Under the pieces are notes generated by a model. That model did no database searches and was not told where the DNA came from. It saw only the letters and a list, made by a program, of their open reading frames with translations. This document shows, piece after piece, positions 1 through 44,679 of a stretch of 64,000 nucleotides of DNA (positions within the stretch are counted from its first letter, which is position 1; each line of letters begins with the position of its first letter). Position numbers and translations under genes: made by a program. The DNA comes from Psammoneis japonica (taxonomy: Eukaryota). The stretch covers positions 124,001 to 188,000 of the forward strand of contig QPGO01000037.1 in NCBI GenBank assembly GCA_008632985.1. The letters run 5' to 3'.

Positions 1-999
1 TGTGGCTGTTTCTAGCTGGTTGTGTGTCTGCACACCACAGACAGGCTGCTCACCCTGTCCATGCCATCAAAAAAAGATCTCCCCTCTCTGCCAAACTCCA
101 AAACTGGGAAGGATGACACCAAACCCCCCCTTCCCAACATTTGCAACCACACTTGACAATGACAACAGCTCATGAATTGCTGGCTTGGACCAACTGATTG
201 TTTTTTGCTTCAGCAGACCCCACAGCTGTCAATGCCTTGGCAGCTGGCTGTTTGCCATCATGCCATTGGTTCTGCACCTCATTGTGCCCCCCAGTTTTGT
301 CTCACAGGCTCTTGATGTGAGAGTGTGAGTTGTCATGTGTTGGTCTCCCCCCTTCAAGACATTTTTAACATGACAGCTTTCCACCCCATGTTCTCAAAGG
401 TGGCAACCAGCTGCTCACTCTGTCACAGAGCAGTGGCAGCCAAGTCAGCAACTGATGTGAACTTTGCTGCAAACTGGATGACATGTGCACCAGCAAAAAA
501 GAGTGAGAAGAGGCAGGTCACAGAGAGATCTGGAACAGAAATGTCAACAACATTGCCCCATCATCTGACAGGCATGGCAGGCATGCGCATTGACCAAAGA
601 GCCTTGGCAAGGCAATTGCTTGGGTCAATCATGCCAGGAATGTGCTGAGTGACAACCTGCCTGGTGTCCTTCCAGCCATGGAGAGCAAACCACTGAATGC
701 CAATGTTTCAGGCATGGCAAAATGTTGAACATGCCATTGTCATGATTGGTCATGTGACAAAAGTTCTGTGCCAGCCAGTGTCACGCAACACCAAGAAATT
801 GACATCCAGGAAACACAACACAGCAAGAGACCACACATCTGGTGTCACAAACTTCAGAGCATGCTCCTCTTTAGCCTCCAGCAAAGAAACAAAAATGCAA
901 TGTCCCACCAGAGCCCACTGGAGTTGTTCAGGATCCAACCATCACCCAGGAGCAAACACAATCTAAAACACAGGAGGGTTGTCCGTGTCATGGAGGTTT

Positions 1000-2750
1000 G
1001 GAGTTCCCCAAGCACCTGATCACAAGCAAACACAACAATGCCATCAATTGAACAAGTGTGTGCACCCACAATCTTGTTGCAAGCAGTGTTGAGAGATGAA
1101 AAAAGGTGGGCCACAGAACTGCTGAACATTTGATGTCCAGCATGTAGACCTGATTCAAACTTGTCGGTCATCACCAGCTCCATGCAACACATGGGGCCCA
1201 AAATGGAGTGCTTCACAGTGCATGTTCAGAGTCTTGACAAATGGGTTGTTGCCAGTGAATTTCAAATGGTCAACCATGGTCTCCTTCAGTTCCTCTGGAA
1301 AAGATTTGCCATTCTGGGTGTGCTGCAGGTGGATGACATTCCGAGGGATTGCATCATGGGGCAAGCCATTTTCATTCTTTTTCAAACCAAACATGCTTCT
1401 CATTCTTGACCCAAGATGTTGCTGGGTCATGCCACAAAATGTTCTTGACAGTGTCAAGGAGACAACCAAGGACAGCACCCTTTGCTGAGTTGGGCCACAT
1501 TGCAGCAGCAGGACATCAATGGCAATTCTTGCAGACCCAAACACAGCAACCAAACATGCAAAATGCACTTTTGAGTTTTGTTCTTACCCAGGGTCACAGC
1601 AAGAGCAACAGGAGCAGTGCACTGATCCTTGGACATCCCCTGGGCTTGATTGGGAGCATTCACACCTTGCCCTTTCCACTCTCTCTGGGGCTCTGAAGTT
1701 TTTCTTGGCCAGTGTGACCCACTTGGGGATTGGACACACCTGCCTTTAATGCCACCTGGCCCGGGAACTGGGGAGCCAACCTTTGTCATGCTTGGACCTG
1801 CCTGACTCCTGAAGTTGTTCAAGATTTGAATTGGTCAGCAGATTCCTGCTTGCAACACAGGCAAGAGCAGACAGCTTGATTTGCTCAGACAGCTCTGCTG
1901 GAAAAGAGAGCTCAAGACCTTGCTCCCAATGCTGTGGCACCTTTGCTGCCTTCCTCACAATGACATCTGTGGTGTCAAAATTTTTTTGCTTTGCCAACAA
2001 TCTGGTGGTCATGCACCAGAAACCTTTGCTGCCTTCCTCACAATGACATCTGTGGTGTCAAAATTTTTTGCTTTGCCAACAATCTGGTGGTCATGCACCA
2101 GATCACAGCTTCTGGCTTGTTGTCATTTCCTGACTTGTGCACACTCTTGTTGAGAAGATCCACAAAATGGAAATCAAGCTTGGGTGCAGCTCACAAGTGG
2201 TGCATGTGCCTGGGATTGTTGGCATGGTCCAACAAATGACTGATGGGCTCAGCTGCAGCATCCAAGGCTGGTGTGTCTTGCATGAACTGGATGATCAGAG
2301 CCAACTCAATGTGGCTGTCTTTGAACCTCTGCTGCTGGACCACCAACTTGCAAGAACACTGTCTGCATCCTTTTGTCATTTTGCGTGGGTGTGCCAAGTG
2401 TGGGACTCAGCTTGGGATGCTTGACAAGTGTTCAACTGGTTCACAGCATGTTTCCTCCTCCTGAGGTGGCTCAACAACTGTCACTTTCCCTCTGATGACA
2501 CACATTGAGCACCTGCTTGCCATGTTGGCACTCTGCTCTTTGCTCCTTTGGTTGTCCCATTGCATTCAAGAGCTGCCTGCAGCCCATCCATTGGATCTGT
2601 GGACTCTTCTCCAGTCTCTGCCACACTCACCCCATTCCCACCATGACACTGCATTTTGGTCCTCACACGCACACCTTGCTGCATTCTTGCACTTCCAGGG
2701 TGGAGCCATGCCTCTTCAGGAGTGGTTCAGTGGCATGAACAACAAGGTTT
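1000..2750 (+). mobile_element. Decayed tyrosine-recombinase (DIRS/Ngaro-like) retrotransposon, RT/RNase H region
   Basis: Fragments in order: CWKRELKTLL (like SSNWREL), FCFANNLV (like F-F-TDN), QVVHVPGIVGMVQQMTDGLS (like HVPG..MI.QG.DGLSR), then PPEVAQQL near 2455. Broken by stops and frameshifts; boundaries approximate. Confidence 0.55.
1939..2102. repeat. About 82-bp tandem duplication
   Basis: acctttgctgccttcctcacaatgacatctgtggtgtcaaaa...ggtcatgcaccaga occurs at 1939-2020 and 2022-2102, differing only in T-run length. Confidence 0.95.
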
Positions 2751-3379
2751 CACTCCATGTGAGGTGCCACCACAGAGCTTTTTTTGCAATCCCTTGGTGA
2801 CTCCTTGCACTTTTGCCAAGCATGGATTTTCATTGGCAGCACCTTCTGCTCCCTGCATGGGGCTTGCTGCTGCTCAAAGTGTGTTCAAGCAGGACCGCCT
2901 TTCACCATTTGCCATCAGAAGGTGGGAGGGCTCACTTTGCTCCCAAACATTTGACAAATGGGCTCATTTCATCTGTGAAAAGTGCACAGTTCAAAGTGCT
3001 TGGATCAGCCACCAGGAACTTGCCTCTGTTGGCAATTGGTGCCTCTGAGCTTTGGAGCACATGCAGACTCTTGGCATGGTGCATGCTTGGTTGACAGGCA
3101 CTCACACAAAGAGTTGAAAAAGGCTCAATGTCCTCTGTTGGTTTGAGTGGACATTCCAGGTTCCAGCTTTGACTTCTGCACCTTCAGTTTGCCCCCCTTG
3201 TGAACTGGAAGTCACTCTTCTGTGGGCCCAGGAGTGTCACAGCCTTTGGACTGGCAAGGCAGGAGAGACCCTGTTGCCTTTGGTGCTGTTCATTAACTTT
3301 GTGGTGCTGCCTTGGGACATGATGACATCCAGGCCTGGCAATGCTGTTGTTGGCACCATTGATTGCTGCACATCCCTTG

Positions 3380-4030
3380 GCAATGGTGGAGTGTGATGTC
3401 CCACATGAGACATTTGTCTCCTTTCAGCAAATTGTGGAGTTGTCAACAGCAGGTCAATTTGGCACTTTGGTTGTTGTCCATTGGGTCAAAGGACACAAAG
3501 ATGATGAAACACCCTGTGAATCTCTGTCTCTTCCTGCCAAACCAAATGTCCAAGCTGACAAGCAAGCTGGTGACTGGGTGCCAAGGCCTGTGCCCTGGGG
3601 ACACTCTTCTGGCTCTGTGCGTGCTTCACTGCTCTGCCAACTCATCTGTTCAAGATTCTTCTGTCTCTTTCAAACACAAGTTGGTTCTTTTTTGTGTGAC
3701 CCCACCCACCCTCCTGATTGCTGTGCACATTGTCAACATCACATGAAGCGTGGAGATTGCACACTCCAGTGCACCCCCATGACATGGCCTGGCATCAAAA
3801 CTTCCTCCAAGGCTTCTTGTGCAAGAAGTGCAGCCCTGGTTTGACTCACTTTTGCTGTCTGCTCTGGAGTGTTGGTTTTGTGAGGAGATGATTTACACTG
3901 GTGATCTTCGCTGCAGTGTCCTCAAGAACATGCTCCATTCTCAGGACAGAGTTGGCTGGCATCCTCTGTTTGGTGGTCAATTTTTGTCCTGTCAGAAGAG
4001 CAACGCCCAAGAGCAATGAATGTGAAGGTC
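3380..4030 (+). mobile_element. Decayed non-LTR retrotransposon fragment (RNase H and C-terminal region)
   Basis: VVVHWVKGHKDD...SLSLPAKPNVQADKQA matches the RNase H HWVKGHQD...N..AD..A motif. It is followed by SQDRVGWHPLFGGQF, resembling the Q..IGW..F..G motif of diatom LINE C-termini. Confidence 0.65.
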
Positions 4031-6129
4031 CTCCCTGCAAACTGGCAGCAGTGACAACATGTGTGTGCTGGTGAGAAAGAACAGGAGAAGCAGATCTTGG
4101 AGAGACAGACAGATTGGCTCATCTGTCCAGGTCTGTCCATCACCCACAGAGTTGGTGTGGCTGCTGACTCCCTCCCCTGACATGTGATGTCTTGTGAGAC
4201 AATGCAAGGAGAGGTGCAACAGTTTGCCATGAAAAGCAGCCTTGCCAATGATGCAAGGCAGCACAAAAACCAGATGAGACCAGAAAAGGTCAGGCAGAAC
4301 ATGTTGGAAAGAGGCAGGTCACAAGGGGCAACATTTTTGCCAAAAACTTCCCAACGGCAGCAGGGCGTGCATGTGCCTGTCCATCTGAGTCTTTGACAAA
4401 AAAAGTCGAAGGCAGCTCCCAACAAATCTTCTGGATGAATCAAGTCTTGTGCCAAAGGACAATTTTGTCAATCTCCACAAATGATCAACCACAAAGAGAG
4501 ATTCTGGCAAGTCAAACTGTCACCAAAACTCATCGGGAGAGATGGGGCCAAAAAATGGAAATCCACCATGACAAATGATGCAGCAAAAATGAAGCAACAG
4601 CAGCCCACTGGACAAACCAATGCTTCTGCCACATGTTGCTTCACCCCTGAAAAACACAGTGGGCAAACAAAACATGTGGCAAAAGTGCTCAATGTCAGAA
4701 GAACATTGGTGTGTCGCAGGTGAGCATCAAATGACACATGCAAATCATGGTCATCAAGTGAGGCATCTTGGTCAAAGCCAGAATGCTCAACAGGCTTGCA
4801 CACTTTTGCTGAGCCACAGGGATCCTGCCATCTCCTGATCATCAAATGCAGGGTTGTCATTGGCAACGGTCAACAGGTCAGGAGCACCAGGAAAGCTGCT
4901 GTTCAACACCACAGCCATCCTTCCAGCAAAGGAAAGAGGTGTTGCAGCAGAAGGCAATGAGACTTGGTGGCCCTCTTTCAGGCTTGTTCCACTTCCATTG
5001 GTCTTGTGCACTTCCTTGTTGCTGCATTTGACCACCCCTCAACAAGCAAATGCAGTGTCATCATCAACAATGGAGGCCAACATGCCAATGGTGGGGACAG
5101 TGGAGGAACAAGATGGCAGAGCAGAAGGCAACCACATTTGGTGCAAGAGCAAACCACTGGAGAAAGCAACATGTTGCTGGCCCCTGAAAAGCTCACTGGA
5201 CAAATGGAGGGCAACCTGGAGTGACTCGATGTTAGAAGAAGGTGGGTGCTTGGCAGGTGAGCATCCAGCGATGTGCAAATCTTGGTCACCCAACAATTCA
5301 CCACTGGAAGAGTTGGAATGCTTGTCAATCTTGTGCACTTCCTCTGCACCACATTGCTCCTTTTCTAAAAAGAAACAGTCAAGATCAACAGACAAGACAG
5401 AGACAGTCATGGCCCAGTGAAGCAGTCACATTGAGGGCCACTTTTTTAAAGAGCAGTGCAACAGGAAATGCATTGACAGGGTCTCTGGTTGCCGGCAGGA
5501 TGTGCATGTTAAGAACCCACTCCTTCAACAATGCAACAACACCATTTTTGGATTGCACATGTTTCTTGGAGCAATCAAAAAACTGATCCAGCCCAAGAAC
5601 AATGCTGCCATGGTGAGTGTCACTCAGCTGAGGCTTTGCAGCTTCATGGTGATGAGATGATGTGGTTGGAACCCTGCACCATCTTCTCAAGGGAGACAAC
5701 AACTGCCTGTTTTGGCACTTGATTTGCCATGGTTGAAGTGAGCAAAAAGGTTGGTCATGCAGGCACAGAGAGTCAGCATTGACCTGCAGCTAAAATTTTG
5801 TTGTGGTTCCATGAAAAAAGAAACATTTTCAGGAACAAAAATGTGGCTGGCTCAATCAGCTCACAAACCAAACAAATCAAAAAAAAGAATTGCAATGCAA
5901 AGGAGTGTGGAACCTCACAAGATCACAACCTGTCAGAGCAGCAACAGCCAAGTCAGCAATCAACATGATCCTTCCCACAAATGGGTGACAATGGAGAACA
6001 TGTGTGCCAGAGAGAAAAAGTGGGAAGAGGCAGATCTCAGAGAGATTTGCTCTGACATCTAAAGAGAGCCTGGCTGGCTGTCATCTGCAAACAGTCTGAT
6101 TGCACATGGCACACCCAGTCAGCTGACAC

Positions 6130-6620
6130 CAACAGAGCCACTGCAAAGTCTCATTCTTGACTTTGGCCCAAGCCATGATTGTGAGCCCAGCTGCATGTCT
6201 GCAGCCTGGATGTGTGTGCATGTGCTGTGTGTGTGCACACTCAGGAGCTCTGTTGTGTGGTGCCTGCTGCTGCACAACAAGTGTGGAGGTTGTGTGTCCT
6301 TGACTCTGCTTCTCTCAGCACATCACTTTGGAGATTGTGTCAAACCAGGGAGGTGCCAGCCACCATTTTTGGCACTCTTGAGCCATGCCAGCTGGAACAA
6401 AGGGTTGGATCACTGTTCTCTCTCTTCTTCTCATTGTCAAAGCAAAACGGCTCAAAAAACACTGAGCCCACCAACACAAAGCATGGCTGCAAATCATGTG
6501 GAGCCAGTTTCAGCAGCAGCAAACAAGCACAGTCCTCGACAAGGACAAGTGCCACTTGCCATGTCATTGCTTTCATGACTTGTGCTCTCAACACAGTTCT
6601 TTTTCATGCTTCTTTCCCAT
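6130..6620 (+). repeat. Dispersed direct repeat, copy 1 (possible LTR)
   Basis: Shares blocks with 9945-10420: agccactgcaaa, gcccagctgc/catgtctgca, ctcagcacatcactttggagattgtg, tgtcattgctttcatgacttg. Confidence 0.75.
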
Positions 6621-6899
6621 CAACCCATTGCACGTTGGATCAATGCAGGGTCATTTGTTCAGCCCAACAAAACTGTGAGTGCAGCTGCTGTGCAGGCAGG
6701 GAACAGCAATGTCTCCAACAACAGAGTGTTTGGAAAATGAAGGGACTCAATTGCAAACAAGAGACCCCGCAGCATCTTGGGCATTTTTGCATGGACTCTC
6801 CTTGTTGATGAGCTGACATTGACATTTTGAGCAGGCTTTCTGGTTGTGCAGTGGAGATGGTCCAGGTGAGAATGCATCAGCTCCACATTGAATCTGTTT

Positions 6900-7860
6900 C
6901 TGAGCATTGTGCTCTGCATGGCAGCCCTTTCTTGCAAATGGCACTGGCAAATTGCGCTCATTGGAGCCAACAAGAAAGACTGCAGAAATGGAGGCACAGC
7001 ACCATGGCTCTATTTCCCATGTTTTCCAACACCATCACCATGTGTCTCACCCCATTCTTCCCATTGCAGGTTTGGTTTGTTGCCATTTAAAGCAGACATT
7101 GTTGGTGTTTGCAGGTGCCAAGGGCTTGGGTCCAACACTGAAGCCTTCCAATGACAATTCCTGAATCACTGTGTCCCACACTAATCTGCAAACATTGCAA
7201 ATCCAACCTTGTTTTTACAGCATCTATGTGCATGGCATGCGTCTGATGTCATTGACCAAATGGGTCCAGGCCATTCCCTTCCAAAGCATCCCAGTGTGAA
7301 TTTTCCCAAAGCCCCATTCTTTGGTGTTGTGTCCACTCCCACTTCTGTTCTTTTGCAGGTGGTTTCTTTTCCAAAGCAGCACTCAGTTCTTTTTGAGACA
7401 AAAAAGTGCCTTGCATGGGATGATGAACTGGGATTGGATTCAGAATTGACAAGTCTTGCAAATCCACCATCTCAGCCTCAAATGTCTCATCAGTGGTGGC
7501 ACAGGTGGCAGTTGCAGTGCCCAAAGAAAGCCACTTGAGGATCAAGCAGAAGAGCTTCCTGCAGTCTGAAGAGCAGCCAATGCTGCTGCACTGGAGGATT
7601 CTTCAGTCTCGAGAATGCTCAAGTCCTTGCCACCTTCTTGTTTGTTCACATTTGTTTCCTGATTGAGCTTGGAATCATTGTCTCTGCTTTTAGATTTTGA
7701 GTTGTAATCACTGCTTTTGGCTTCGGGGTTGTTGATTGCAGCTGCTGGAGCTGGAGCTGCATTGCACAGGTTTTGCAAAGCATTGGTGAGCTGCTCAAGG
7801 ATCTCATTGTTGTTGAGATCTTGAACACCAGCAACACAACTTTTCACAGCAGGCACCCCA
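6900..7860 (-). mobile_element. Possible decayed Ty1/copia (CoDi-like) gag remnant
   Basis: Minus strand near 7060-6980 reads like KNG..TW.WCWKH...WC.H...C across frameshifts (CoDi gag zinc-knuckle-like). Upstream QLTNALQNL..APAPAAAINNP is gag-like. Confidence 0.3.
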
Positions 7861-8630
7861 TTTTGTGGATTGCCAACAAAATCTCAATCAAGTTGCAGGG
7901 GTGCTGTGGCTGTGCATTGCCAGATGTTGGTTTTGAAACTTTGCTTCTCCTCACAGCTGCTGATGAGTTTGCAGCAGTCACTGATGGTGCATTGTCCTCC
8001 AATGCCACCCAAAAATGTCAAAACACATCACCCTTTGCCAAGCTTTGGACACCACAAAAAATGCTCATGGCCAATGACAAGAGCTTCAATGTTGTTCAGT
8101 TCAACAACACACCCCACTCAACAAACAATGAACAGCAGCACCGCTGTCATCAAAATTTGGTCCTCACAAAGCACCACCAGCACATTGCCACATGCAAGAA
8201 ACAACTGAAACACAGTTTTAAAGTGTGTGTTGATGCGTTTGGTCAAAGATTCAATGTTTTGAGGAGGACAGGTCAACAGATGAACAGAGAAAGGAATTGC
8301 AAAACACTGCAATTTTTGGCTGCCTGGAACACAGACTTTGACTTGAATCGCAGCACTGAATGTCCACTTTTGTAGTTTCAAGTTGTGTGGTTTGCACTCA
8401 AAATTAATCTTCAAAAGCATTTCCCTGCTCATTGCTCCCAAAGGGCAGAGACGTTGAAATCAAACAAATGCACCACTCTCATGCATGTCCAAAGAGGAGT
8501 GGACAATGTCAAACATGAATGGGAGCTGTCTTCTTGTGCCACAGAGAGGACCATTTGTCAACCAAGATTGCCCCACAGGCAAACTTTTCCTTTCTGCAAT
8601 GGCAACTCTCACACAGCCAAAAATGAAGTG

Positions 8631-9560
8631 AAAAAGGCACTTGATGACAGTGGCACAAGATTGAGGGATTTGAAAATCTGCAAGTCCCACAGTCACAACT
8701 TTTCCCAACTTGTTCCATTGAGGAGTCTGCCACGCAGCTGCAGCACTTTTTTGGCTGCACATGCTTTTTGGCCATGTCACCATCTCCATGTTTTGCCTTG
8801 TTCATCAACATTGTGTTGAGTGGAAGCTGCAACTCTGACACTTTTCCACACCTTGGCTTGCACATTTCTCATTTCCATTTCAAAACTTGTTGCTGTGCAT
8901 GCACGCCACTTTGTTGTGCAGAGCTCATTTTTGTCATTGTTGCAAAAGGCACTTGACAGTGGCACAACATTGAGGGATTTGAAGATCTGCAAGTCCCACA
9001 GTCACAACTTTTTCCCAACTTGTTTCTCATTGAGGAGTCTGCCGCTCAGCTGCAGCACTTTTTTGCTGCACATGCTTTTTTGGCCATGCCACCATCTCCA
9101 TGGGGTTTTGCCTTCATCAACATTGTGTTGAGTGGAAGCTGCAACTTTGACACTTTTTCACACCCCAGCTGGCACATTTCTTGTTTCCATTTCAAAACTT
9201 GTTGCTGTGCATGCACCACCACTTTCTTGTTGTGCAGAGCTCATTGTTGTAAAAAAGGCACTTGACAGCAGTGGCACAAGATTGAGGGATTTAAAAATCT
9301 GCAAGTCCCACAGTCACAACTTTTCCCAACTTGTTTCACTGAGGAGTCTGTCACTCAGCTGCAGCACTTTTTTGGCTGCACATGCTTTTTTGGCCATGCC
9401 ACCATCTCCATGGTTTTGCCTTCATCAACATTGTGTTGAGTGGAAGCTGCAACTCTGACACTTTTCCACACCTTGGCTGGCACATTTCTTGTTTCCATTT
9501 CAAAACTTGTTGCTGTGCATGCACTGCCACTTTGTTGTGCAGAGCTCATTTTTGTCATTG
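8631..9560. repeat. Tandem array of three units of about 310 bp
   Basis: Units start near 8631, 8944 and 9253 with aaaaggcacttga..cagtggcacaa.attgagggattt..a.atctgcaagtcccacagtcacaac. They give three repeated MEAATLTLFHT ORFs. Confidence 0.95.
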
Positions 9561-9944
9561 TTGTTTTGTGCTCTTGTTGCAGATTGGGGGGTGTCTTTGT
9601 GAGCTGGCTTTTGCTGACATGCTGTTGTTTCCAAATGACCCCCCACTGACAAACTCCTCAAACATGGAAGACCCCTCTTGACATTTGCAACGGCACTTGT
9701 TGGTGAACAAAAAAGGTGGCAACAATCTTGGTGGCTGGCAACTTGCTGCTAGCCTCAGTGTGCATGCTTGCCAGAGAGTGATTTTGTTTGTTCATTTGTT
9801 CAAGTTAGACAGACAGACAGAGAAAGAAAGTGCAGCAGCAAGTGATGGACAAGAGCTGCAGGCACAAAGTCTGTGCCCCCCACTGGAAGACATTTTTCAG
9901 CGCTGTGACAGCTTTTCCTTTGTCAAGGATGGCAGCTTGCTTCT

Positions 9945-10420
9945 GACAAAGCCACTGCAAAAGTCATGTTGCTTCCCCTGATGTCAGCCCAAGCCCATGG
10001 TTGTGTGCCCAGCTGCTGCATGTCTGCATCTTGAGTGTGTGCACACTGCTTGCTGGTGGCACTGCGAGTGACAGCCACGTTCTGACACACTCTCTGCTTT
10101 TTGACTGTGTGCTGCAGTGCTCAGCACATCACTTTGGAGATTGTGCCAAGCCATGCAGGCACCAGATGCTGTTCCTTTTGAGACTCAAGAGACACACTCC
10201 TCTTGCAGAAACACCAAAAACTTCTCTCCTCGAGCCTCAAAAGAGGAGGCGTGTCATCACAGCAGCCCCCCCCAAGACAGGAACCAGTTCGAGCAGCAGC
10301 AGCAGCATGCAAACATGGTGCTCAATGAGGACAAGCGCCACTCGCCACTCGCTTTGTCATTGCTTTCATGACTTGCACTCCTCGTCGGCTACACGGTTCT
10401 TTCTCGTGCTTCTTTCGCAC
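9945..10420 (+). repeat. Dispersed direct repeat, copy 2 (possible LTR)
   Basis: Homologous to 6130-6620; its right end retains CpG. Confidence 0.75.
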
Positions 10421-10632
10421 ACATGTTGTGGACCCGTGACGACGGCGATGCGCGGAACATCACGTTTGGTCAACACGAAAGGCGCGTTTCTTCAGTCCCG
10501 CGAAACCGAGAACGCGGCTGGAAGCGGGGGAAATGGCGGGGTCGACATTCGACATTTGCCGAAGGCCGTCACAAACTAAACAACGTTGTTGAAACGTCAC
10601 ACCTGGCACCACCAACGCCCAGCACCTAAACC

Positions 10633-11732: not shown

Positions 11733-11829
11733 GCGACCCTGATCTCAAATAGCACTTTCGTGGTTTGTCAATTGCACCTACTCTGCTTAGTCCCGTACCT
11801 GCTATCTACTGCATCGCTACTACTTCATC

Positions 11830-18789: not shown

Positions 18790-20520
18790 GGGACATCTCA
18801 CCAAGAGGAGGTTTGCTTCATGCTTTTGAACTTCATTCAGCGCCACGGCCACTCACCACCAATCCAAAACACGATGGGTCCATCTCTTTCAACTGGTGGA
18901 AAGGGATTGACAGAAGAGACAAGAAAGGTCTCTTTCAGGCAGAGCCGTCACTCTCTTGACGTTGATGATGTGAAATGCGCGACAAGAGCTCGGGAAAGTG
19001 TCGGCTCGAGTCCACACCACAGGAGGATCAAAATCAAAGAGAGGTCAAAAAGATGACAAAACAAAAAATGAGCCAAGCCTGTCTTAGAGAGATGTGATGA
19101 AACTGTGAAAAGACTCTCCGGCTTTGTCCGAACAGCTCCCACAGAAAGGAGCGATCTTTTTGCCACCAATCTTTTCCAAATCAGACATTGCCAGCACAAC
19201 CACAGGGCAGGTGCACTGTGCCACATGGACCATCAGAATTGCAAGCACATTTGAAAAGCAGTGGCTGATTTCACTGCAGCAGCAAAAAGAGAGGAAATGG
19301 CAGAACCCCAACACCACCGCGAGAGGCACAGACAAGACGATGTGCCACAGGAGTGTGCGAGCAAATGTCGACAGCACCGACAAGCAGCCGCCCAAGGTGG
19401 CATTTGGCAGTGTTCAGGACAGGCCCAACCCCTCCATTGCTTTCTGTCACTTCTTGCTCAACAGCATCCAGCAACGTTGGAGTGCACAAAGCCCCAGCCA
19501 GCAGAATGGACACCAAAAAGAGAAAAAAGAAAAAAAGAGAGTTGTTGGCTGTGCTTGCCAATGCAGTTGCCCACCCAAGGACAGAGACTGCAAGAAAAAG
19601 AAAAAAACAACTGAGTGAAATGCACGAAGATGTCGTCATTTGCAAAAGCAAGAGAGCCCAACAACAAGGTGTTTGTGCTGCTGACCAAATTTAGAAACAC
19701 AGACATTGCATTTGCTGCAGTGCTTGGATCTTGCTTGGCAGTCTGCAAATTTGCACCACGTTGAACAATGTCAGCATCCCAGTGGCCTGCCCACATGGGT
19801 GTTTCATCATTTGGAAGAGGTGGTTCAGTGGAGGACAACATGGGCGGCACTCCTGTGATTTCTGGATCCATGGCAGCACTTGCCTTCCCCACAATGACAA
19901 TGTGGCAAGGATGCTCAACACAATGCTCCACTGCAGAGTGTCAAAGACACCAAATGGAAGTCACTGTGTCCTGTCTCTTTTCCAAGAACTGACTTTTTCT
20001 TGTGGATGACTGGCGGGCCATGCACAATGATGACGACAACCTGGCCCACACTGCTGCTGACCTCACACCATGTCTTTTTTCATGATTTTCAAAGTGTTGA
20101 GAGGAAGTGTCTGAGTTCCTGAACATCTCTGTGGTGGCCTTGTGTGTTGTTGAGCTGCTTGGTGGGGAAAGATGCTCCATCTCTGGCGGATGAAGCTGCT
20201 CTCCCGTGCACTGCAACAGATCAAGAGGGACCTGGATCCGGCCACGTTTGCACTCTCCACCATCAAGGAAGGTTCCCAAATGCTGATCAAGAAAGCAGTT
20301 GTCAATTGTAAATGCAGAATTGCTTTGGGCAGAAGCTGTCCAGACATGCCCCCCATGGCAAAGGCAGGGAGCGAGGCATCTCGACAGCAAACAGCAAACT
20401 GTGCAAAAAATGAAAAACTGCCAAAAACCAACAAAAACTTGCCAAAAAGAGAAAAAAAGCAAGCGCCAACAAGCGCTGGCGCTCTCCGCTGACTGATGCT
20501 GTCTTCGTCTCTCTGCTGCC
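18790..20520. other. CpG/TpA-depleted hypermutated domain (unclassified repeat remnant)
   Basis: TpA nearly absent; CpG partly retained at the left edge and scarce centrally; no credible ORF. Confidence 0.8.
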
Positions 20521-20982
20521 AACGCGACAATGATGCCGTCATTTATCGTCGGTTCTCGGTAAAGAATCGTCTCTTTTTTGTATTCAGCGCGTTCAATTCT
20601 TTCCAGGGTGGCAGTCATTTTGAGATTTTGTTTCGTTCTGAAAACAAGTGCGTGCTTTTTGGGTCGTAATAGGCCTGCGGTGTTGGACGAACGAATGTGA
20701 TTAGGAGTCCACATTATTTGTGCAGAGCAAAGGGAGGAAGACATGGTATGGGATAAACGCTCACTAGTTCCGAAACTAGTCGTCTGCCAGAGATCTTCGT
20801 CTGCACAAGCACAGGTCTAGGCCTGTTACAAGTACAGTACGAAAATTCTATAACAAACCAACTGATCCTGGTGAACTGAAGAGGAGAACATTCTCCCCAG
20901 TGATTGGGTTTGATATTATTGTTAAAGAACCTACAATTCATAATGTGGATATACAACATGCTACCATATGCAGACAGGGACA

Positions 20983-23136: not shown

Positions 23137-23559
23137 TGTTCTTGAGGATATTTTAAAGGTTGTTTTAGGGTAAGTAAGAGGTGAAAGGTTGTTGGATCAA
23201 CACTTTTCGGAATTGTGACAGCCATTCTGTTGCCAAATTCAGGCTTGACGCAATCCTGGTGAGTCGTTCTTTATTGGGGGCGAGCCACGTTTGGTTTCAT
23301 TCGCGGATAGATGGGGCGGAAGGGTCGTGCATAACAAAGCCCAAGACATATGTATGTCTCGATGTATGACTCGGTCATTTTTTTGTCCATTCTGCTGTGT
23401 CGCGTGCAGGCACGCACACAAGCATCGCTCATCATTGACCAACATCGACAGAAAAAAAGGTCGTACTGTGTAGACAAAAACATTAAAAAAATGTCAAAGG
23501 GTGTTAGATTCAGCGAGGCGAAGGTTCGCCGAACGGTTTTGCCACTCGTGGTTCCAACA

Positions 23560-25430
23560 ATTTGGCAAATTGATGTTTTTCAAGTCTTTGTCTTTCCAGA
23601 TTTTGTGCTGCAGTCACAGTTGGCAATGCAAGCTTGACAGAGATGATGAGAAAAAACAACACAGGAGAGAGGCGCTGCCACACAAAAGAGCAGGAAGACA
23701 GAGCTCAGAGAGAAAGCAGCAGCTGGCGCTGCCTCTGCAGAGCTTCTTTGGGGGAAATGACAAGAGTTGAGCTCAGCACATCAGGTTTGGCAACTTGTTG
23801 AGAATGAGGGCACAACACCTCAAAGAGCTGGTGTGGAGGCTTTGCTCTCTCTCAAAGAAGTGGGCAGCCGCTGAACAAAAAAGCTCTCTCTGGCTTGTCA
23901 CAAGCAGGGCTGGTGCAGAGATGGCAGCAGCGCTCATCATGCAAAAAGCACTCTTGGGGGTTTCTGGAGCCCTGGCAGCATGCTGCTCAGTGCTCTGTGA
24001 GTGGCTGCAAGCCACAAAGCAAACAAAATGACAAAAACAATGTTGCAAGAAAATTCGCTGTGCAGACTTGGCAGCTCGTTGGTTTTTGACAACTGCGGTG
24101 TTTTTCGGCACACAGCAGCAGATCTTGAGCAGCAACAAGAGAGGCAGGCAGAGCTTCTGTGTGCTGCACCAGCTCCCAAAGTGTCAGAACCCAGAGCTGC
24201 CATGCTTTTGAGTGTGCGGCCTCTGCTGCAGCTCTCGCAAGCTTGTGGCCTCAGCACGATCCTCAGCGCTTGCTCTGGGGTTGTGTGCACTGTGCTGGAA
24301 CAAAAGGTTTCTTTCCTGGCCAGGTGGGGAGAGGGTTCTTTTTTCTCTCCTTTGCTTTGGCTGGCCAGTGCCGTGCAAGTTTTTTTCTGAACAGCTCCCT
24401 TGTCAATCAGCTGAAAGTGTGGAAGAGGGAAAAAACAGCACAGAGAGGAGAGTCTTGTGTCTGCCAAGCCTCATTTGACACACAATGTCAGTGAGTGCAC
24501 GTTGCTGGATTCAGGCAGAGAACCTCTGCTGAGAGGGGGTTTGCGGATCAGCTTTGACCTCCCTCAGTCACTCACAATTTTGTTCATTTGCCCCCACCAA
24601 ATGTCAACTTTTTTTTGTTGGTCGTCAGGGGAAACTGCCTGATTGCGCCTCTTGCTAGATTTTTTGGAATTGGGTTTTGAGTTTCTCCTGCGGAATGCAA
24701 TTTGGAGGTGGAAACGAGTGCGAGCAGTTTTCTCCATCTTTGCACTTTCACGCTCTTGAATTTTCCACCTGCCATCTTCAGACTGATGCCGGTTGTGACG
24801 GTGGAGGTGCCAAGGAGCGCAGCGCAACTCATCCGGCTTCTGTGGCAATTTCTTGATCGAATCTTTTCCAACCCCCAGCTTTCGCAAGAAAAGTCGTTTT
24901 TCATCAGGATTTGCAGGAAGACGAAACATGCCAAAGTGAGAGTGTCCAATGCCTTCGCAGACTGGATTCTCACAACAGCAAATCGCCGGTGCCGATTTGC
25001 CATTGCACTGTGGCATGTGCTTGGGTCCAAGCAGGCAATGACCCCGTCGCCCCTTTTTTTTGGCTTCCCTTTCCCATCCGTCAACCGAGGGTGCCAGCCA
25101 CGGCCATGAACAATGCAGAGCCCATGGTTTTGACAAGCTGCCAGGCAAACACAACTTTTTCCACTTGCACCCTTGCAAGTGAACTCGGTGAACGACACCA
25201 AGTCTGACGCGATGCCAAGAGCTTCTGCAAGTTGTGCCCGAGACCCAACCGAGCCAAAATCAACAGCACTCATTGCTTTCAGCAGTGAGATTGTGGACCA
25301 TGCGCAGTTTTGCCATACATCATTCATTCAACAGGACGGCAGCTGCTGTGACTTGCTCTTCGTCTCTGTCAAAAGTCATAAGAAGCATGTGATGACACTG
25401 ATGTTGATGTGCTGCAGTCTGCAGTGAAAA
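23560..25430 (-). mobile_element. Decayed DNA-transposon-like remnant with THAP-like and CxxxC..HG.G zinc finger fragments; TpA-depleted
   Basis: Minus-strand CCCENPVC...FRLPANPDEKRLFLRKL...LRCAPWH (THAP-like) and CKGASGKSC...CQNHGLCIVHGRG; strong TA depletion. Confidence 0.5.
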
Positions 25431-25810
25431 TTGAAAAATGAAAATTTAATTCAAATATAAATTTCCGGTTGTCGCCCAGTCTGTCCGTAAACAGGCCAAA
25501 ATCTTGAAAAGAAAAAAGGTCTATGATGTGCTCGTACTTGAATAAAAGATAAAATAACAGGGAGCTACGTGGAAGAAAAAAGCTGAAAGCGGTTGAACAC
25601 GCACGTACGTGTAGCTGCGTTGCGTGTACCAATCGCGTAGAAGTCTACGTGGCAGCGACGTCGGAGCCAACAATCGCATCATGCTTGTGTTGGGCGGGAT
25701 GAAGTGGCGGAAGCAACAGATCGCAACGACAACTTCCATCGCAAAATTCCACAACCATCAACAACGATTTCACAATGTGCCGTAACAATTCAAACGCAGA
25801 ACAAACAAGC

Positions 25811-30859: not shown

Positions 30860-33420
30860 CATGAACACGGAGTTTGAGACATGTTCTGGTGACGACCTTG
30901 TCTTTGTCAAAGAAGTTTAGACTTGGTGAGGCACCCCAATGTCACTCTGCTCTTTGTTGGTTTTGTTTAAAAATTAAAATGTGCACACAGCTCTTCTCTG
31001 CACACGGTGTTGTTGGAGAGCAGAAGCCTTGCGAGAGCTGTTGCTTTTCTTCACATCTGTCAAAGTGCGCAAAAAGCAAAGAGAGACACGCTAAAAATGG
31101 CAAGCTTTTCATGGCCAGCTCTTGGCCCCTGATTGTCCACAGCTGCAATGCCAGAGCACATGATGCACAAATCAAGGCCCCACAGAGATTTGTGAGCAGA
31201 GCACATGATGTGTTTTCATCCCAGGTGAGAAACTTTTGGACACATCACGAGGTTTTCTACGTGTTTCTACATGAGACGTACATTTAGCACCAAAAATCTT
31301 AGTAAAAAACGAGCTCCAAGACACCAAAAATATATTTTTCCATGTCTCGAACCACAAACCACAATTCGCGCAAACCGAAAATGGCACCATGCCGTCGCCA
31401 TGAACTCGTCCATTCTCACACCAACGGATGTTGTGACTGAGAAGGCAAGAATGTCGAGACAGGTCAACAAGACAACGCTCAATGCGATGATGTGGTTGAA
31501 AAATTGATCTTTGTTTTTTGTTGTGCCTTGTGGATGGCCTTTTGACTCATGACATTTTTGATGCCTCTTTCTCTCTTCCTCAGCTTGCGAAGTGGGATTC
31601 TCATCAACGCGCCGCTCCATCTGCTTGACACCGGATGCTGACAACGAAGAATGTTTCTATGACACGTTGCTGTGATTCTTGCATGTATCGTCCGCACTTT
31701 GAGTCGTCATGGACGACGCTTTTGGGTCGCGCGACAACATCAGATTTCGCCACCGACAAGAGAATCGTCATGTGTTCGGTTTTGAGGGTGTGTGAGGATA
31801 AAGAATCTCAGATGCAAGTGTGACAGTTTCATCATTGTAAAGTAAAACAATGCCATTGGCGACATCTTGGTGTTGCAGCCATTTTGTTTTATTCTAAGAT
31901 AGAACTGGTCATTTTGAGCGGCGAAATTTTGTCAATGTTTCATCTTTAACTCTGCTTGGGCACATCAAATCACACAATGACCAGACACACATTGAACTTT
32001 GACGCTGCCATTTCAATCCTATTGTTTTATTCACTCAAGCATCCCACACAGGTTGACAAATCAGTCGATCTTTGAAATGGCCGATCGCGCAAAAAAATCA
32101 CGTGCGAAGTCAGTTCCCCGATTTTTCTTGTGCAACACAGAGTTAGAACGCGTTCTTTTTGGCATGAGCTCTTTATACAATGAATGATGCATGCATTCTT
32201 TCAAAGTAGTCAGATTCGGTGAAAGAAACAGCAGAACAGTCTCTCAAATGCACCAGAATGACAACAACGAGCAGACAGCTGTCAGTTTCACTCCAAAAAA
32301 TGCCGCTTTCGAGATGGCGCTTTTCTTGTGCGCACCCTTCAACCAATGAGAACAATGGCTGGCTTTTCAAAATAAACATGTCTGTGGAAGAAGAAACGAA
32401 AAATCAGGGGAAAGTCCAGTCAGATTGCTCGCACAAAAAGCACGGCGACGGAAAAGGACAGACGAAACGTCTCACCTCCGCAGCGCGTTTCTACTGGATG
32501 AAAACACATCACATGTGTGCTCCTGCTCACAAAATGTGGCTCAGCAAGAAAAAGCACATGTCACATGATGATGCTGGACTGATCCTGCTGCATGTGGCCT
32601 GTTCCAGCCCCAGCAGGTGATGAGACATCCATCATGTGAAAGGCCAATTTTCTGTGCAGTTCAGCACATCAAACTCCTTCAACTGTGATCGCTTCGAAAA
32701 TCGAAAGGCAAGTGCACACCCGAAAATGCATGTGAAGTGCACACTTGCCCTTCAATTTGGAAAAACAGGTTTTGAAAGAGTTAATGTGCCAAATGCAAAA
32801 ATGGGCAAACATGGGAATCGAACCTGTTCGCATCACCTGGAGCTGGAAGAGGCAAGAAAGCACAAAGCTTTGGAGCAGCAGAGAAAGGTGTGTGCAAATG
32901 CCGCCAGCTGGGGCCTTTTACATGAGCCACCCAAAAGTGCATAAAATGCCAGAAAATGTCAAAATTGCAAGTTTTGTGTGGTTGTTGTGGTTGCAGAGGT
33001 GTGCTCTTTTTGCTCCCTTTGTTGTCGTTTGAGAGCGCCAGCACAGCAACAAGAAGGAAAACACCAGCTCAGCAGGCCCAGTGTGGAACAGCCAAGCCAA
33101 CTTTGTATTTGGGAAGCACACCTTTCATGCTTTTTGCCACTGTGTAAAAAACAGCAGTGAAGCGCAGTGCCCATGCACAGCACAGGCTGCGGCAGGACAA
33201 AAAAAGAGAGAGCTTCACAAAAGAAGGGGCAGGAAAGCCCAGGCTCTTTGGAAGAGACAACGGTGTGGCTTTTTCTCATGTCTGCTGAAGCAACAGGGTC
33301 TGCCATGAATGAATGGTGATTCAAGCAAACAATTTGCTGCACAATTGGTTCTGTCATGGCAGGAGAGCGAAACGAGAAAAACGAGGTGCACCAGCGAAGC
33401 ACCAACCATGCGTTGGATTG
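30860..33420. other. Patchy CpG/TpA-depleted hypermutated domain (unclassified repeat remnant)
   Basis: TA-poor throughout with CpG partly retained (about 31340-31800 and 32060-32490); no credible ORF. Confidence 0.7.
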
Positions 33421-34073
33421 GCAGTTGAAAGCCGTTGACTGAACGTTGGGAAGGGCTCTGTTTATGCTATTGTATGTGCGAATTTCTCTATTTCTATGAT
33501 ACAAAATCAAGCGCTTTATACATAATCAAAGTAAAGATGAATTTATATTTATTTTTAAGTTGGAATATCTGAATACCATTCTTGTGGGTTTAATAATTGC
33601 GCGAACAGCGTCGTAACAGTCTTGTAGATTTCTACACAATCATTCCCACACCTCGTGAAGTCGAATGAAAGCTGAAGTGCACCCACTCGAGCGTTGATAT
33701 CACTTGTTTGTGTTTGGTTGACGCATTTCACTCGGAGACGATTTTTGTGTCAATTCTTTCGCTGCTTTCGGTCGCCTCACTGTTATTTTAATCGGCAGAT
33801 CAAGTTGTAAGTGATACGACGCTGGAACGCGTCGAAAAAATTGTTGCCGGAGAAGAGAGATTGATTGGTTGATCCTGCCGTGTTAGAATTTTTTGCGGGA
33901 ACGACGTTTCACGTAGCTCGTGGTACATTTCCACGTAGGATGACGTTGTTGTGAGAATGGCCTTCTCATCACCTCCTCCTTTTGTTCTTGTTTCTAACGC
34001 TTTCGGTTCTCTGTTGTAATTTTTCTTCCGCAGTCTGCTTTTAGTACTTTTAAGGAAAGCGAAACGTGTTCCT

Positions 34074-43862: not shown

Positions 43863-44594
43863 TTAGATCCACGTTGACGCACGCTTCTCTCGCATAGCCT
43901 GAGATACCTTCCTCATTGCTTCCCGTTCTGAGAGTAGGAAGTATCGTCCAGTGTTGGGATCCTTCTTCACAAAGCGTCCAACATGCGACACAAGATAGCG
44001 TGCCGTCTCGTAGTTTTTGTGTGTCTTTTGCGCTTTTGTGATAGTCTTCTGCTTGGTGAAACGCGCAGAGTCTTGGCGTTTACTCATGATCACGCGGCGA
44101 TAAAGCCTGTTGCCCTCGTTATTATTGGATCTGCCACCACGCCCAACAAGAATGTCATGGTCTGTGGGTTCTGTAACATAAACACGACGGCTTTTGCTTG
44201 GCGAAAATTTGGGATCCTTTGGCCACAACCAACGAAAGTTTTGGAATAGCATTGCTTTGAAACTCTTGCTGGTGACTGCAAGTAGAAGTCGGGAGCGCAC
44301 ATCGGTAAACTCTACAATGAGGCTTAAGGTGTCATTAGGGAGCTCCGTGATTGAAAATCGGTTGCAGGAGGATTTGTCGGAGGAATCAATGTTGGAGAAA
44401 TCAAAAAGTTTCAGGATTTCATCTTCCAAATCGAGGTCATTCGGCAGGAATGAAAGGGCGAAGTCATCAACATCTTCCATTGGCAGTGGTTCAAAAGGAT
44501 CGGAAAGTTCCATTGTCAATCGTCGATCACTGCGATATCGTAAACTTCTGCTGGCAAAATTGTCATGGTCAAGCCTCGACTCAACTTTGTTCAT
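43863..44594 (-). CDS. F-box-like plus DUF6824 domain protein
   Basis: ITELPNDTLSLIVEFTDVRSRLLLAVTSKSF (F-box-like); PTDHDILVGRGGRSNNNEGNRLYR...GRFVKK...AMRKVSQAMRE (DUF6824). Confidence 0.82.
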   Translation of the reverse strand: MNKVESRLDHDNFASRSLRYRSDRRLTMELSDPFEPLPMEDVDDFALSFLPNDLDLEDEILKLFDFSNIDSSDKSSCNRFSITELPNDTLSLIVEFTDVRSRLLLAVTSKSFKAMLFQNFRWLWPKDPKFSPSKSRRVYVTEPTDHDILVGRGGRSNNNEGNRLYRRVIMSKRQDSARFTKQKTITKAQKTHKNYETARYLVSHVGRFVKKDPNTGRYFLLSEREAMRKVSQAMREKRASTWI

Positions 44595-44679
44595 TGAGTA
44601 TCTTCAACACCTTGTATGTTTACATGATTGACCCGCATGTAGAAAAGTACAATTCTTCCTACTCGCCAATCGTGCAACA

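Follow-up and report, generated by a model that had tools for sequence, protein, structure and literature searches.

Within a window of 64,000 bases (the whole stretch of DNA analysed here), we find seven blocks, together 18,970 bases or ~30% of this gene-dense sequence, in which nearly all TA and most CG dinucleotides have been replaced by TG and CA. We put the probability at roughly 0.65 that these blocks result from a local, context-specific transition hypermutation that acts on DNA, in silent repeats and pseudogenes. What is established is the signature, the direction of the changes, the fact that they fall site by site on both strands, their locality, and the loss of TA ahead of CG. The best explanation of the blocks themselves is that they are silent DNA rewritten in place, namely pieces of repeats, a satellite-like array and one or more dead copies of genes.

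The signature is clearest in the largest block, which occupies positions 1..10333 and continues past the window start. By dinucleotide counts, the observed/expected ratio (O/E) there is 0.04 for TA and 0.08 for CG, and nearly twofold for TG (1.85) and CA (1.87), compared with 0.57, 0.96, 1.16 and 1.18, respectively, in the 44,775 bases of background. An earlier note on this DNA had proposed a TA- and CG-less, TG/CA-rich domain at 1..10400; the domain is real and the depletion stronger than claimed, the TpA ratio being 14 times lower than in the background. Bases 1-10390 contain 29 TA and 49 CG, where ~700 TA are predicted from base composition. The longest run without TA is 1,547 bases (1747-3294), in contrast to a TA every ~25 bases in the background, and a Poisson estimate for such a run is ~e^-60. 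The G+C content of the block (0.481 vs 0.474) and its number of pyrimidine-purine (YR) steps are those of its surroundings: 239.1 YR steps per kb in 1-10390, 238.8 in the background, and 237.7 (sd 7.8, n=35) in 2-kb windows of the background. Since the YR total is constant, TA and CG were converted to TG and CA via transitions. In all purged blocks AT dinucleotides are also down and GC dinucleotides up.

The consequences for translation are largely those that had been expected. In six-frame translation tyrosine makes up 0.04% of residues vs 2.20%, TAA and TAG together number 2.3 vs 17.0 per 1000 codons, and Cys, Gln and His (as well as Trp) are enriched 1.55-1.75 fold. The accompanying claim of many spurious ORFs holds only modestly, with TGA up to 24.2 per 1000 codons, a stop-to-stop mean of 36 codons and a maximum of 224 aa. 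Coding capacity was undetected in every purged block. None of 85 ORFs of at least 70 aa contained a TE domain (a sub-threshold UPA was the one Pfam hit with E <= 0.01), Pfam searches with the six read-through frames of 1-10500 gave nothing at E <= 0.1, for the multi-copy part phmmer returned only 3 spurious matches to repetitive proteins, and no homologue was found for a 247-aa ORF in the block at 23540-25440. The DIRS/Ngaro-like, LINE-like and copia remnants suggested earlier are thus unsupported (0 Pfam TE domains), in a test of low power that also missed the relic of a DUF6824 gene in 44726-47318. Because Pfam failed to see this known relic, its silence is weak evidence either way; the purge plausibly hides sequence identity from homology searches.

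Blocks were called with a 3-state HMM run on pyrimidine-purine steps. It assigned 1..10333 to the state in which both TA and CG are lost (29 TA, 44 CG, 1159 TG, 1238 CA) and found six more blocks, so that the feature extends past the coordinates first reported. These lie at 18794..20521 (TA O/E 0.02, CG O/E 0.29-0.43; multi-copy, with contig depth 302 and 175 vs ~55), at 23540..25440 (with a sub-block, 24656-25316, of TA O/E 0.03 and CG O/E 0.68), at 31098..31247 (a mini-block of 150 bases with zero TA and zero CG), at 32220..33460 (TA O/E 0.09, CG O/E 0.48), at 44726..47318, and at 62976..64000 (62976-63999 in the HMM; 11 TA and 6 CG in 1,024 bases), the last continuing past the window end. 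The seven blocks are mutually unrelated, even after purine/pyrimidine recoding, yet the signature is common to all. Their edges, which adjoin active transcription units, are sharp on a scale of 100 bases: TA per 100 bases falls to 0 from 9 at 18.8 kb and from 5 at 44.7 kb, where the block begins no more than ~120 bases from the start codon of a gene described below, with the final TA at 44660 and the final CG cluster at ~44727. Outside the blocks TA is retained by five introns (57/kb) and seven spacers (39-154/kb), and the purge is therefore not the neutral equilibrium of the genome. Immediately before the first spliced transcript contig, which starts at 10569, lies an edge zone, 10334..10577, that is TA-poor (1 TA) and CpG-rich (CG O/E 1.47); taken alone it is not significant, as equally long TA-free runs occur in normal coding DNA. 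Purged blocks were absent from 236,574 bases in 44 metagenomic loci of distant relatives, a point against our reading.

A host gene and its duplicate give the direction of change. The parent, at 43863..44603 on the minus strand, is of normal composition and encodes an F-box (E 2.3e-4) and a DUF6824 domain (Pfam PF20710, E 7e-14). A purged, frameshifted copy lies in tandem and in the same orientation at 44936..45590 (minus strand; blastn 70% identity, 42 gaps), and the parent ORF is intron-less in the aligned part. In tblastn the match is spread over several frames, with 53-59% across 90+46 aa, and after RY recoding their identity is 87-91%. There are 20 TA and 26 CG in the parent at 44080-44665, and 2 TA and 7 CG in the tandem copy. 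In this pair, the only one within the window that joins purged to normal DNA and one that offers 45 informative dinucleotides, 0 of 20 parental TA were kept (10 became CA, 6 TG and 4 other) and 2 of 25 parental CG (13 became CA, 7 TG and 3 other). As the parent is normal and the copy purged, the direction is from TA and CG to TG and CA. Double hits were rare, only 1 of the 20 TA having become CG. Sites other than TA and CG differ at 90 of 496 positions, with transversions at 35 of 496 (7%), and transitions in the pair total 56 for A>G plus T>C and 37 for C>T plus G>A. Along the alignment, sites that became TG alternate with sites that became CA, showing that both strands were hit; a process working through RNA or cDNA of one strand would not leave this pattern.

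Three purged-purged repeat pairs have 5, 2 and 4 TG-vs-CA discordances (404, 118 and 107 aligned bases), compared with 0 in a normal paralogue pair (301 bases); the sites were thus resolved independently after duplication. The five belong to a dispersed direct repeat, possibly LTR-like, with members at 6166..6619 and 9987..10419 (both plus strand, 404 bases aligned), the right end of which coincides with the end of the purged block. The tandem array previously noted in 1..10400 is present at 8629..9563 (plus strand; TRF, period 312, 3 copies). Its copies are all purged, differ by 2 TG/CA discordances per pair, and were amplified mostly after the purge. An 82-base tandem duplication at 1939..2102 (plus strand; blastn 98.8% identity) has 0 mismatches in 81 aligned bases and so postdates the purge. 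The segment 4003..5336 is multi-copy (summed contig depth 734 and 404 vs ~52-103 elsewhere), and six contigs each stop at 4474 and 5006, continuing into TA- and CG-bearing sequence. Both refutations offered in the earlier note fail: TpA O/E lies far below background, and beyond the match the flanks of other 4474-5006 copies have TA and CG close to background, although these flanks comprise only 4 short consensus ends and are weak evidence.

TA was lost independently of CG and before it. Across the blocks CG O/E varies from 0.08 to 0.68 while TA O/E in the main blocks stays within 0.02-0.15, and in sub-block 24656-25316 TA loss is complete where 68% of CG is kept, which indicates two separable processes. 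In the parent/copy pair the context of the changes looks enzyme-like. The A>G rate is 0.47 after T, 0.16 after A, 0.14 after C and 0.10 after G, and it is 0.22 before T, 0.20 before C, 0.09 before A and 0.04 before G; the C>T rate is 0.41 before G, 0.13 before A, 0.09 before C and 0.02 before T. T occupies 51% of the flanks of the 69 TA left in purged DNA, compared with 22% for TA in the background (chi-square p 2e-16). The prediction that the adenine before a pyrimidine is the one changed was borne out at 8 of 12 informative sites, which is not significant. Trinucleotide balances suggest that TCG was lost more than GCG, but 5 of 6 TCGG in the pair changed on the other strand; given that the pair contradicts a 5'-T preference for C>T, we claim no CpG-flank preference. 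No run clustering of TG and CA is seen in 1-10390 (runs test z 1.12). Finally, TA/(TG+CA) in purged DNA is only 0.008-0.05, and since TA has not re-accumulated despite the 7% transversion divergence of the dated block, the process seems to persist.

These results support the earlier proposal of a post-insertion process that affects a domain, or repeats generally, rather than a bias of one element's reverse transcriptase: the seven blocks are unrelated, one includes a purged host-gene copy, both strands are affected, and introns and spacers keep their TA. On our reading, two activities can be told apart. The first turns A:T into G:C at TpA, most strongly when a pyrimidine follows the adenine (T-A-Y, read as R-T-A on the opposite strand), with a weaker A>G at A-Y in general, and runs to saturation. 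The second turns C:G into T:A at CpG and lags behind in what looks like a clock-like manner, as deamination of methylated cytosine would. One hit per TA or CG, on either strand, produces TG or CA, which is no longer a target; TG/CA thus forms a sink and the number of YR steps stays constant. The driver may be an enzyme directed at silenced chromatin, and we favour as a candidate a TadA/ADAT2 or AID/APOBEC-like deaminase acting on adenine and (methyl)cytosine. The purge could serve genome defence in the manner of RIP. That a dedicated genome-defence mutator attacks the adenine (or the paired thymine) of TpA in double-stranded chromosomal DNA, beside CpG deamination, is a tentative idea to which we give somewhat less than even odds. 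The dated pair is old, so that slow passive decay could also reach saturation, and the window fits a fast or a slow process. Such a mutator, if it exists, would amount to a non-fungal counterpart of RIP whose signature is reversed, and to a natural chromatin-targeted DNA A:T>G:C editor that turns all self-complementary YR steps into TG/CA. We found no description of such a TA/CG purge in the literature.

Several known systems share part of this behavior. In RIP of the Neurospora type in ascomycetes, as in the blocks, silent or repeated DNA carries local, context-specific transitions with sharp edges by intact genes, coding capacity is destroyed, and the dinucleotide signature is found by sliding windows (RIPCAL), according to the available portion of PMC2621366. 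RIP, however, makes only C:G>T:A changes, mainly at CpA, creating TpA and AT-rich DNA, whereas here TpA is erased (O/E 0.04) and G+C unchanged. The leading change here is A:T>G:C, the route by which 16 of the 20 lost TA went, and cytosine changes fall at CpG. RIP is triggered by homology and mutates both members of a duplication; here the parent is spared and intact and its tandem paralogue saturated. RIP acts before meiosis and requires a methyltransferase of the RID / DIM-2 type. This form of RIP belongs to ascomycete fungi, and the host here is non-fungal by gene content. The purge is best read as resembling RIP in its logic and opposing it in its signature. A RIP-like process in basidiomycetes (Microbotryum) makes C>T changes at a CpG-containing target (TCG) in TE copies and leaves a TG/CA excess, like that seen here, but the accessible part of the report describes no A/T component or TpA loss (10.1101/2022.08.03.502670). 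For one eukaryotic enzyme to yield both transition types there is a precedent in ADAT2/3, of the TadA fold: the amphioxus enzyme deaminates DNA C (TCG preferred) and A (GAA preferred) in vitro and in E. coli, and trypanosome ADAT2/3 is cited for C-to-U on DNA, as far as the available text of PMC10354150 goes. The adenine preference described there is GAA, as opposed to T-A-Y here, and the activity was demonstrated in those assays rather than as a genome-defence system.

Methyl-CpG decay, as in vertebrates, plants and others, is likewise limited to silenced DNA and graded by age, and here CpG>TpG/CpA is confined to the blocks (CG O/E 0.08-0.48 vs 0.96 outside). The CG part of the signature is probably due to it. 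It spares TpA, whereas here TA loss exceeds CG loss, and it does not explain the signature as a whole, TA loss in 24656-25316 being independent and ahead. A purely passive account would instead invoke heterochromatin that bears 5mC at CpG and, at TpA, a further symmetric modification such as N6-methyladenine or a thymine oxidised or glucosylated by an enzyme of the TET/JBP type. Such bases would miscode or deaminate spontaneously, at perhaps 50-100 times the usual rate, and a dedicated mutator would not be needed. TpA and CpG are both self-complementary, like the dinucleotides used by maintenance modification systems, and J-type thymine modification occurs at TpA of kinetoplastid telomere repeats; we found no literature linking 5-hydroxymethyluracil with TpA. 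The graded, clock-like loss of CG (O/E 0.08-0.68) agrees with passive decay, as do the age of the dated copy (7% transversions) and a TA/(TG+CA) of 0.008-0.05, which fits a steady state. Moreover, when the window is compared with contigs of run X1 in 1-7445, 7 of the 10 single-letter differences listed involve a CpG in one of the two, although CpG makes up ~1% of these bases, fitting ongoing CpG hypermutability. We nevertheless think this account unlikely. Intermediate TA loss is found in no block (TA O/E 0.02-0.15 in the main ones, as if all-or-none), and the absence of TA at 68% CG retention requires a TpA rate several-fold above that of methyl-CpG; we know of no passive lesion that outpaces methyl-CpG several-fold at TpA. 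Eukaryotic 6mA, for its part, has so far been described at ApT instead of TpA in the available part of PMC12695648.

The composition could also be native to a mobile element or endogenous virus selected against TA and CG, for nuclease or RNA-sensing escape, and inserted already purged. CpG and UpA avoidance is known in RNA viruses, parts of the blocks are multi-copy, and the right edge of the main block is the end of a direct repeat. But a purged host-gene copy that lies tandem to its normal parent and differs precisely at parental TA/CG sites makes this very improbable, as do the undetected coding capacity of all blocks, their lack of relationship (RY recoding included), the TG-vs-CA discordances at sites resolved independently after duplication, and the TA and CG in the flanks of other 4474-5006 copies.

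Still less credible is hyper-editing of repeat transcripts (A-to-I at UA, C-to-U) followed by their reverse transcription into the genome. ADAR/APOBEC editing of retroelements does leave clustered transitions in mobile-element copies, as here, and the 5'-neighbour order of A>G (T > A > C > G) is that of ADAR. ADAR prefers a 3' G, however, the opposite of the 3' preference for Y over R, with G lowest, found here; to our knowledge ADARs are confined to animals. ADAR/APOBEC marks are strand-specific, arising from RNA or cDNA, and one edited strand would yield only sense TA>TG, whereas outcomes here switch strand within tens of bases and the affected gene duplicate stands beside its parent in tandem, not dispersed. 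In an ADAR/APOBEC-edited retrocopy the changes would be confined to one strand, whereas TG and CA alternate here (runs test z 1.12).

The least probable explanation is that the reference assembly contains systematic errors of base calling or polishing where motifs are modified, of the kind that methylated motifs cause in some long-read assemblies: the purged gene copy has indels and 7% transversions too, blocks end sharply beside normal DNA within the same contigs, and separately built k-mer contigs of X1 (possibly the source sample of the assembly; ~55-70x depth, longest contig 315 kb, which noisy long reads would not give) carry the main block almost letter for letter, with 3 differences in 1,968 bases, 5 in 2,493, 1 in 760 and 2 in 2,145, making an assembler artefact unlikely.

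The depletion of both TA and CG that the earlier note reported for positions 1 to 10400 was confirmed. In 2-kb windows across 1-10000, observed/expected ratios (O/E) were 0.02-0.06 for TA and 0.05-0.09 for CG (1.75-1.94 for TG and 1.75-1.99 for CA); outside it, further purged stretches excepted, they were mostly about 0.5-0.7 for TA and 0.8-1.0 for CG. Positions 1-10390 hold 29 TA, 49 CG, 1,163 TG and 1,243 CA (TA O/E 0.04), and the background (44,775 bases) holds 1,755 TA (O/E 0.57) and 2,419 CG (O/E 0.96). Since the background has one TA per 25 bases, the longest TA-free run (1,547 bases) would have a probability of about e^-60 by Poisson arithmetic, ruling out chance. A three-state HMM over pyrimidine-purine (YR) steps delimited the main block at 1-10333 and extended the finding to six more, at 18794-20521, 23540-25440, 31098-31247, 32220-33460, 44726-47318 and 62976-63999; all seven sum to 18,970 of 64,000 bases (30% of the window). 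Their edges are sharp: at 18.8 kb the count of TA per 100 bases drops from 9 to 0, and at 44.7 kb it drops from 5 to 0.

Otherwise the window is ordinary gene-dense eukaryotic DNA, with genes for an M1 aminopeptidase, an SRP72-like protein, a zf-MYND protein, two DnaJ-X proteins, a Cdc14-like phosphatase, an alanyl-tRNA synthetase and a CMAS methyltransferase, together with ankyrin genes and an F-box/DUF6824 gene. TA stands at 57 per kb in five introns and at 39-154 per kb in seven ordinary spacers between genes, so the purge is local and not the equilibrium of the genome. Introns in the window, as seen in spliced contigs of sequencing run X2 (transcriptome-like in behaviour, though not recorded as RNA), are 80-104 bases long. 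The X2 joints at 10747-14800 define short introns in a DUF4336-like and the M1 aminopeptidase gene, skipping 88, 104, 88 and 80 bases with GT..AG or CT..AC ends; a fifth joint there spans 200 bases with CC..TG ends. The purged blocks lie between transcription units, spliced X2 contigs starting at 10569 and ending at 18585, just beyond two block edges. X2 contigs give no cover over most of 1-10005 and no RNA dataset is listed for 1-10000, neither of which can be read as silence. Following the main block, and ahead of the first spliced transcript contig (which starts at 10569), is a 244-base stretch (10334-10577; CG O/E 1.47, G+C 0.57, a single TA) that looks like a CpG-island-type promoter spared CG loss. 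Sampling of the lineage is poor, with 44% identity to the best SRP72 relative; we take the window to be diatom/stramenopile-like from the occurrence of DUF6824, a family on which our literature search found nothing.

Transitions leave a purine a purine and a pyrimidine a pyrimidine. Positions 1-10390 contain 239.1 YR steps per kb against 238.8 in the background (237.7 per kb, sd 7.8, n=35, in 2-kb background windows). What is lost as TA (from 39.2 down to 2.8 per kb) and as CG (from 54.0 down to 4.7) returns as TG+CA (from 145.5 up to 231.5), as expected if conversion was by transitions alone. The same conversion can be followed in a tandem pair. Window self-comparison aligned 44080-44662, inside the normal-composition F-box/DUF6824 ORF (43863-44603, minus strand), to 44936-45586, inside a purged block and in the same orientation; its many indels and several frames mark the latter as a dead gene duplicate. 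Over 586 aligned bases, none of the 20 parental TA is retained in the purged copy (fates: CA 10, TG 6, TC 2, CG 1, AA 1) and 2 of the 25 parental CG are (CA 13, TG 7, other 3), while 90 of 496 sites outside TA/CG contexts differ, 35 of them by transversion. Along the copy, TG alternates with CA as the outcome and one TA only was hit twice, so the process works at individual sites on both DNA strands, and a site that has become TG/CA is no longer a target. Editing of one RNA or cDNA strand is thereby excluded, as are long processive one-strand tracts. Processive single-strand deamination was also dropped on a flat runs test in 1-10390 (z 1.12); the TG-CA variance per 200 bases is 1.8x binomial, which original strand composition could explain. 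A coding-strand bias of outcomes in the pair (23 vs 13, p about 0.13 by binomial arithmetic) was likewise set aside.

Within the parent/copy pair, A>G rates by 5' base are 0.47 after T, 0.16 after A, 0.14 after C and 0.10 after G, the first being a saturated value since one hit per TA is enough; with a non-T 5' base, they are 0.22, 0.20, 0.09 and 0.04 before T, C, A and G, respectively. Among the 69 TA surviving in purged DNA, 51% of flanks are T (TTA/TAA), the figure for background TA being 22%, and there is a shortage of R-TA-Y contexts (chi-square p 2e-16). The pair rates and survivor flanks together point to T-A-Y (R-T-A on the opposite strand), that is, a TA whose adenine precedes a pyrimidine, as the best target. 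The changed adenine in the pair was the one preceding a pyrimidine in 8 of 12 cases, the expected direction, though not significantly so. A weak A-Y preference also accounts for the lowered ApT (34-52 per kb vs 61) and raised GpC (71-91 vs 61) of every block relative to background. C>T rates in the pair by 3' base are 0.41 for G, 0.13 for A, 0.09 for C and 0.02 for T; a flank rule for CpG was abandoned, as the parent/copy pair and trinucleotide balances disagree.

Three dispersed repeat pairs in the main block carry 5, 2 and 4 sites with TG in one copy and CA in the other (over 404, 118 and 107 aligned bases), compared with 0 in a 301-base normal paralogue pair. Adjacent double differences of this kind arise when an ancestral TA or CG is resolved separately in each copy, and these copies were therefore mutated in place, after duplication. 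In a 312-base tandem array the purged state is common to the copies, with only 2 TG/CA discordances per pair, and an 82-base duplication has 0, so both were amplified later. Of the earlier interpretation, the view that the process is post-insertional and not specific to one element is borne out. The DIRS/Ngaro, LINE and copia labels attached to the block gained no support: Pfam found no TE domain in 85 ORFs, no family at E <= 0.1 in six read-through frames of 1-10500 and no credible match in 30 read-through frames of five shorter blocks. The sole Pfam matches over ORFs and read-through frames, UPA (E 0.0046) and Host_attach (E 0.031), both fall below the cut-off. These tests are of low power, since the known DUF6824 relic, found by tblastn against its parent at 53-59% identity, was also missed by Pfam. 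A word-indexed search gave no homologue of the 247-aa ORF at 24584-25324(-) among 509 candidates, and phmmer with the read-through of 4003-5400(-) against 1.84 billion proteins gave 3 matches, all repetitive proteins with 6-13 short stretches each, which we judged compositional. When 177 ORFs from normal DNA were compared with the purged blocks by tblastn, the DUF6824 pair was the only match besides ORFs overlapping block edges, and a purine/pyrimidine-recoded self-comparison with a reversed-sequence decoy yielded no further purged-versus-normal pair; Rfam and tRNA searches each gave 0 matches.

Contig depth shows that 4003-5336 (734/404) and 18677-20000 (302/175) are multi-copy, values elsewhere being about 52-103. 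Other copies of 4474-5006 continue into sequence with near-background TA and CG (from few 30-base consensus ends), a hint that some relatives of purged DNA elsewhere in the genome are unpurged. A diverged paralogue of 7139-7447 is present both in run X1, whose contigs match the window, and in transcript-like X2; with its 22 listed differences applied it has TA 4 and CG 4, the window copy TA 3 and CG 1. The main block ends on the right where a direct repeat (6166-6619/9987-10419) ends, and the 44.7-kb block starts at the end of the duplicated gene unit. Purging may thus have the inserted or duplicated element as its unit, and not an arbitrary domain.

Within the window TA loss is all-or-none (O/E 0.02-0.15 in the main blocks), whereas CG loss is graded, from 0.08 to 0.48 by block. 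In sub-block 24656-25316, TA is gone (O/E 0.03) with CG at 0.68, so the TA purge is independent of the CG purge and runs ahead of it. The CG component has the look of ordinary methyl-CpG decay; when X1 contigs nearly identical to the window are compared with it over 1-7445, 7 of 10 listed single-letter differences involve CpG in either sequence and 1 involves TpA. X1 differs from the window by about 1.4 per kb in purged block (six listed near-identical pieces, 1-10870) and by about 3.8 per kb in two neighbouring-gene pieces. The ratio TA/(TG+CA) is 0.008-0.05 in all blocks, although the purged gene copy has gathered 7% transversions. Had purging ceased long ago, more TA should have been restored at TG/CA sites by the usual G>A and C>T changes, and the continuing scarcity of TA suggests that purging is ongoing or ended only recently. 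By arithmetic that includes an inferred step, its rate would be roughly 50-100x the ordinary per-site transition rate.

What the data show is a transition process that is local and context-specific, makes single hits on both strands, has TG/CA as its sink and takes TA before CG. We infer that the changes are two deamination-type transitions, in which adenine would become hypoxanthine (read as G) and cytosine or 5-methylcytosine would become uracil or thymine; we favour an enzyme-driven process that would be aimed at silenced chromatin. Amphioxus ADAT2/3, described in PMC10354150 as deaminating DNA C (TCG preferred) and A (GAA preferred), is a precedent for one eukaryotic enzyme acting on both DNA bases, and that article cites C-to-U activity of trypanosome ADAT2/3 on DNA. 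The adenine context it describes, GAA, differs however from T-A-Y. The chief competing explanation is that a TpA-specific base modification and 5mC decay passively, which fits both the palindromic targets and a steady state but requires a TpA lesion more mutable than methyl-CpG. The remaining rivals (an invading element selected to avoid TA and CG, RNA editing with retroposition, and technical artefact) are each contradicted by the pair, the strand pattern or the read data. The purged block recurs in independently built X1 contigs, which differ from it at 3 of 1,968, 5 of 2,493, 1 of 760 and 2 of 2,145 bases, excluding an assembler or polishing artefact, though X1 is possibly the window's own sample and so not independent biological replication.

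Silent or duplicated DNA riddled with transitions resembles the outcome that repeat-induced point mutation (RIP) yields. Ascomycete RIP, however, makes only C:G>T:A changes, prefers CpA>TpA with rising A+T and hits both copies of a duplication; when tested for, all three were lacking here. To our knowledge, targeted point hypermutation of repeats is firmly established in fungi only, and for cytosine only. The Microbotryum-type TCG process, as far as it is described in 10.1101/2022.08.03.502670, has the CpG half alone in common, and methyl-CpG decay explains only that half. In the openly accessible literature searched, neither TpA-directed hypermutation nor a combined purge of TA and CG from repeats was described. 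The process belongs in our view to a kind already known, targeted hypermutation of silent DNA, and there is a substantial chance that the adenine/thymine-directed half represents new enzymology or a new DNA modification.

A block-limited process erasing TpA by A:T>G:C transitions would extend defence by repeat hypermutation to another eukaryotic lineage. Its existence would imply either that nature has a mutator aimed at adenine (or thymine) in DNA or that there is a TpA-specific DNA modification so far undescribed, and it would also explain how a large genome share (30% of this window) escapes homology-based repeat and pseudogene annotation. Loss of TA and CG with constant YR-step density provides a simple detector for any genome, the question is open to experiment in a culturable alga, and natural enzymes with T-A-Y specificity would be of interest for base editing. 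No purged block was seen in 44 metagenomic loci (236,574 bases) of distant relatives, a weak negative as the contigs are mostly short and genic; the loci were chosen around SRP72 homologues with 24-39% identity over long matches, the last six matching 14-43 residues only. The metagenomic TA-free runs of 456-659 bases all fall in three contigs with G+C 0.69-0.73.

Finally, several minor features of the window may be recorded. The main block contains three occurrences (426-532, 4027-4106 and 5934-6049) of a short element, about 80-116 bases long, with 88-94% identity in purine/pyrimidine coding and a less clear match in plain DNA. An assembly gap (599 N) occupies 36752-37350. Two DnaJ + DnaJ-X paralogues (28938-30374 and 38888-40621), both of normal composition, lie on the same strand 8.5 kb apart. 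At 53421-56827 the CMAS gene (cyclopropane-fatty-acid-synthase-like methyltransferase, E 5.6e-74) adjoins a flavin amine-oxidase-like ORF on the same strand. Three ankyrin paralogues follow at 57137-62666, and the coding part of an ankyrin-repeat gene includes a tandem repeat (57345-57554; periods 21, 42 and 84 bases).
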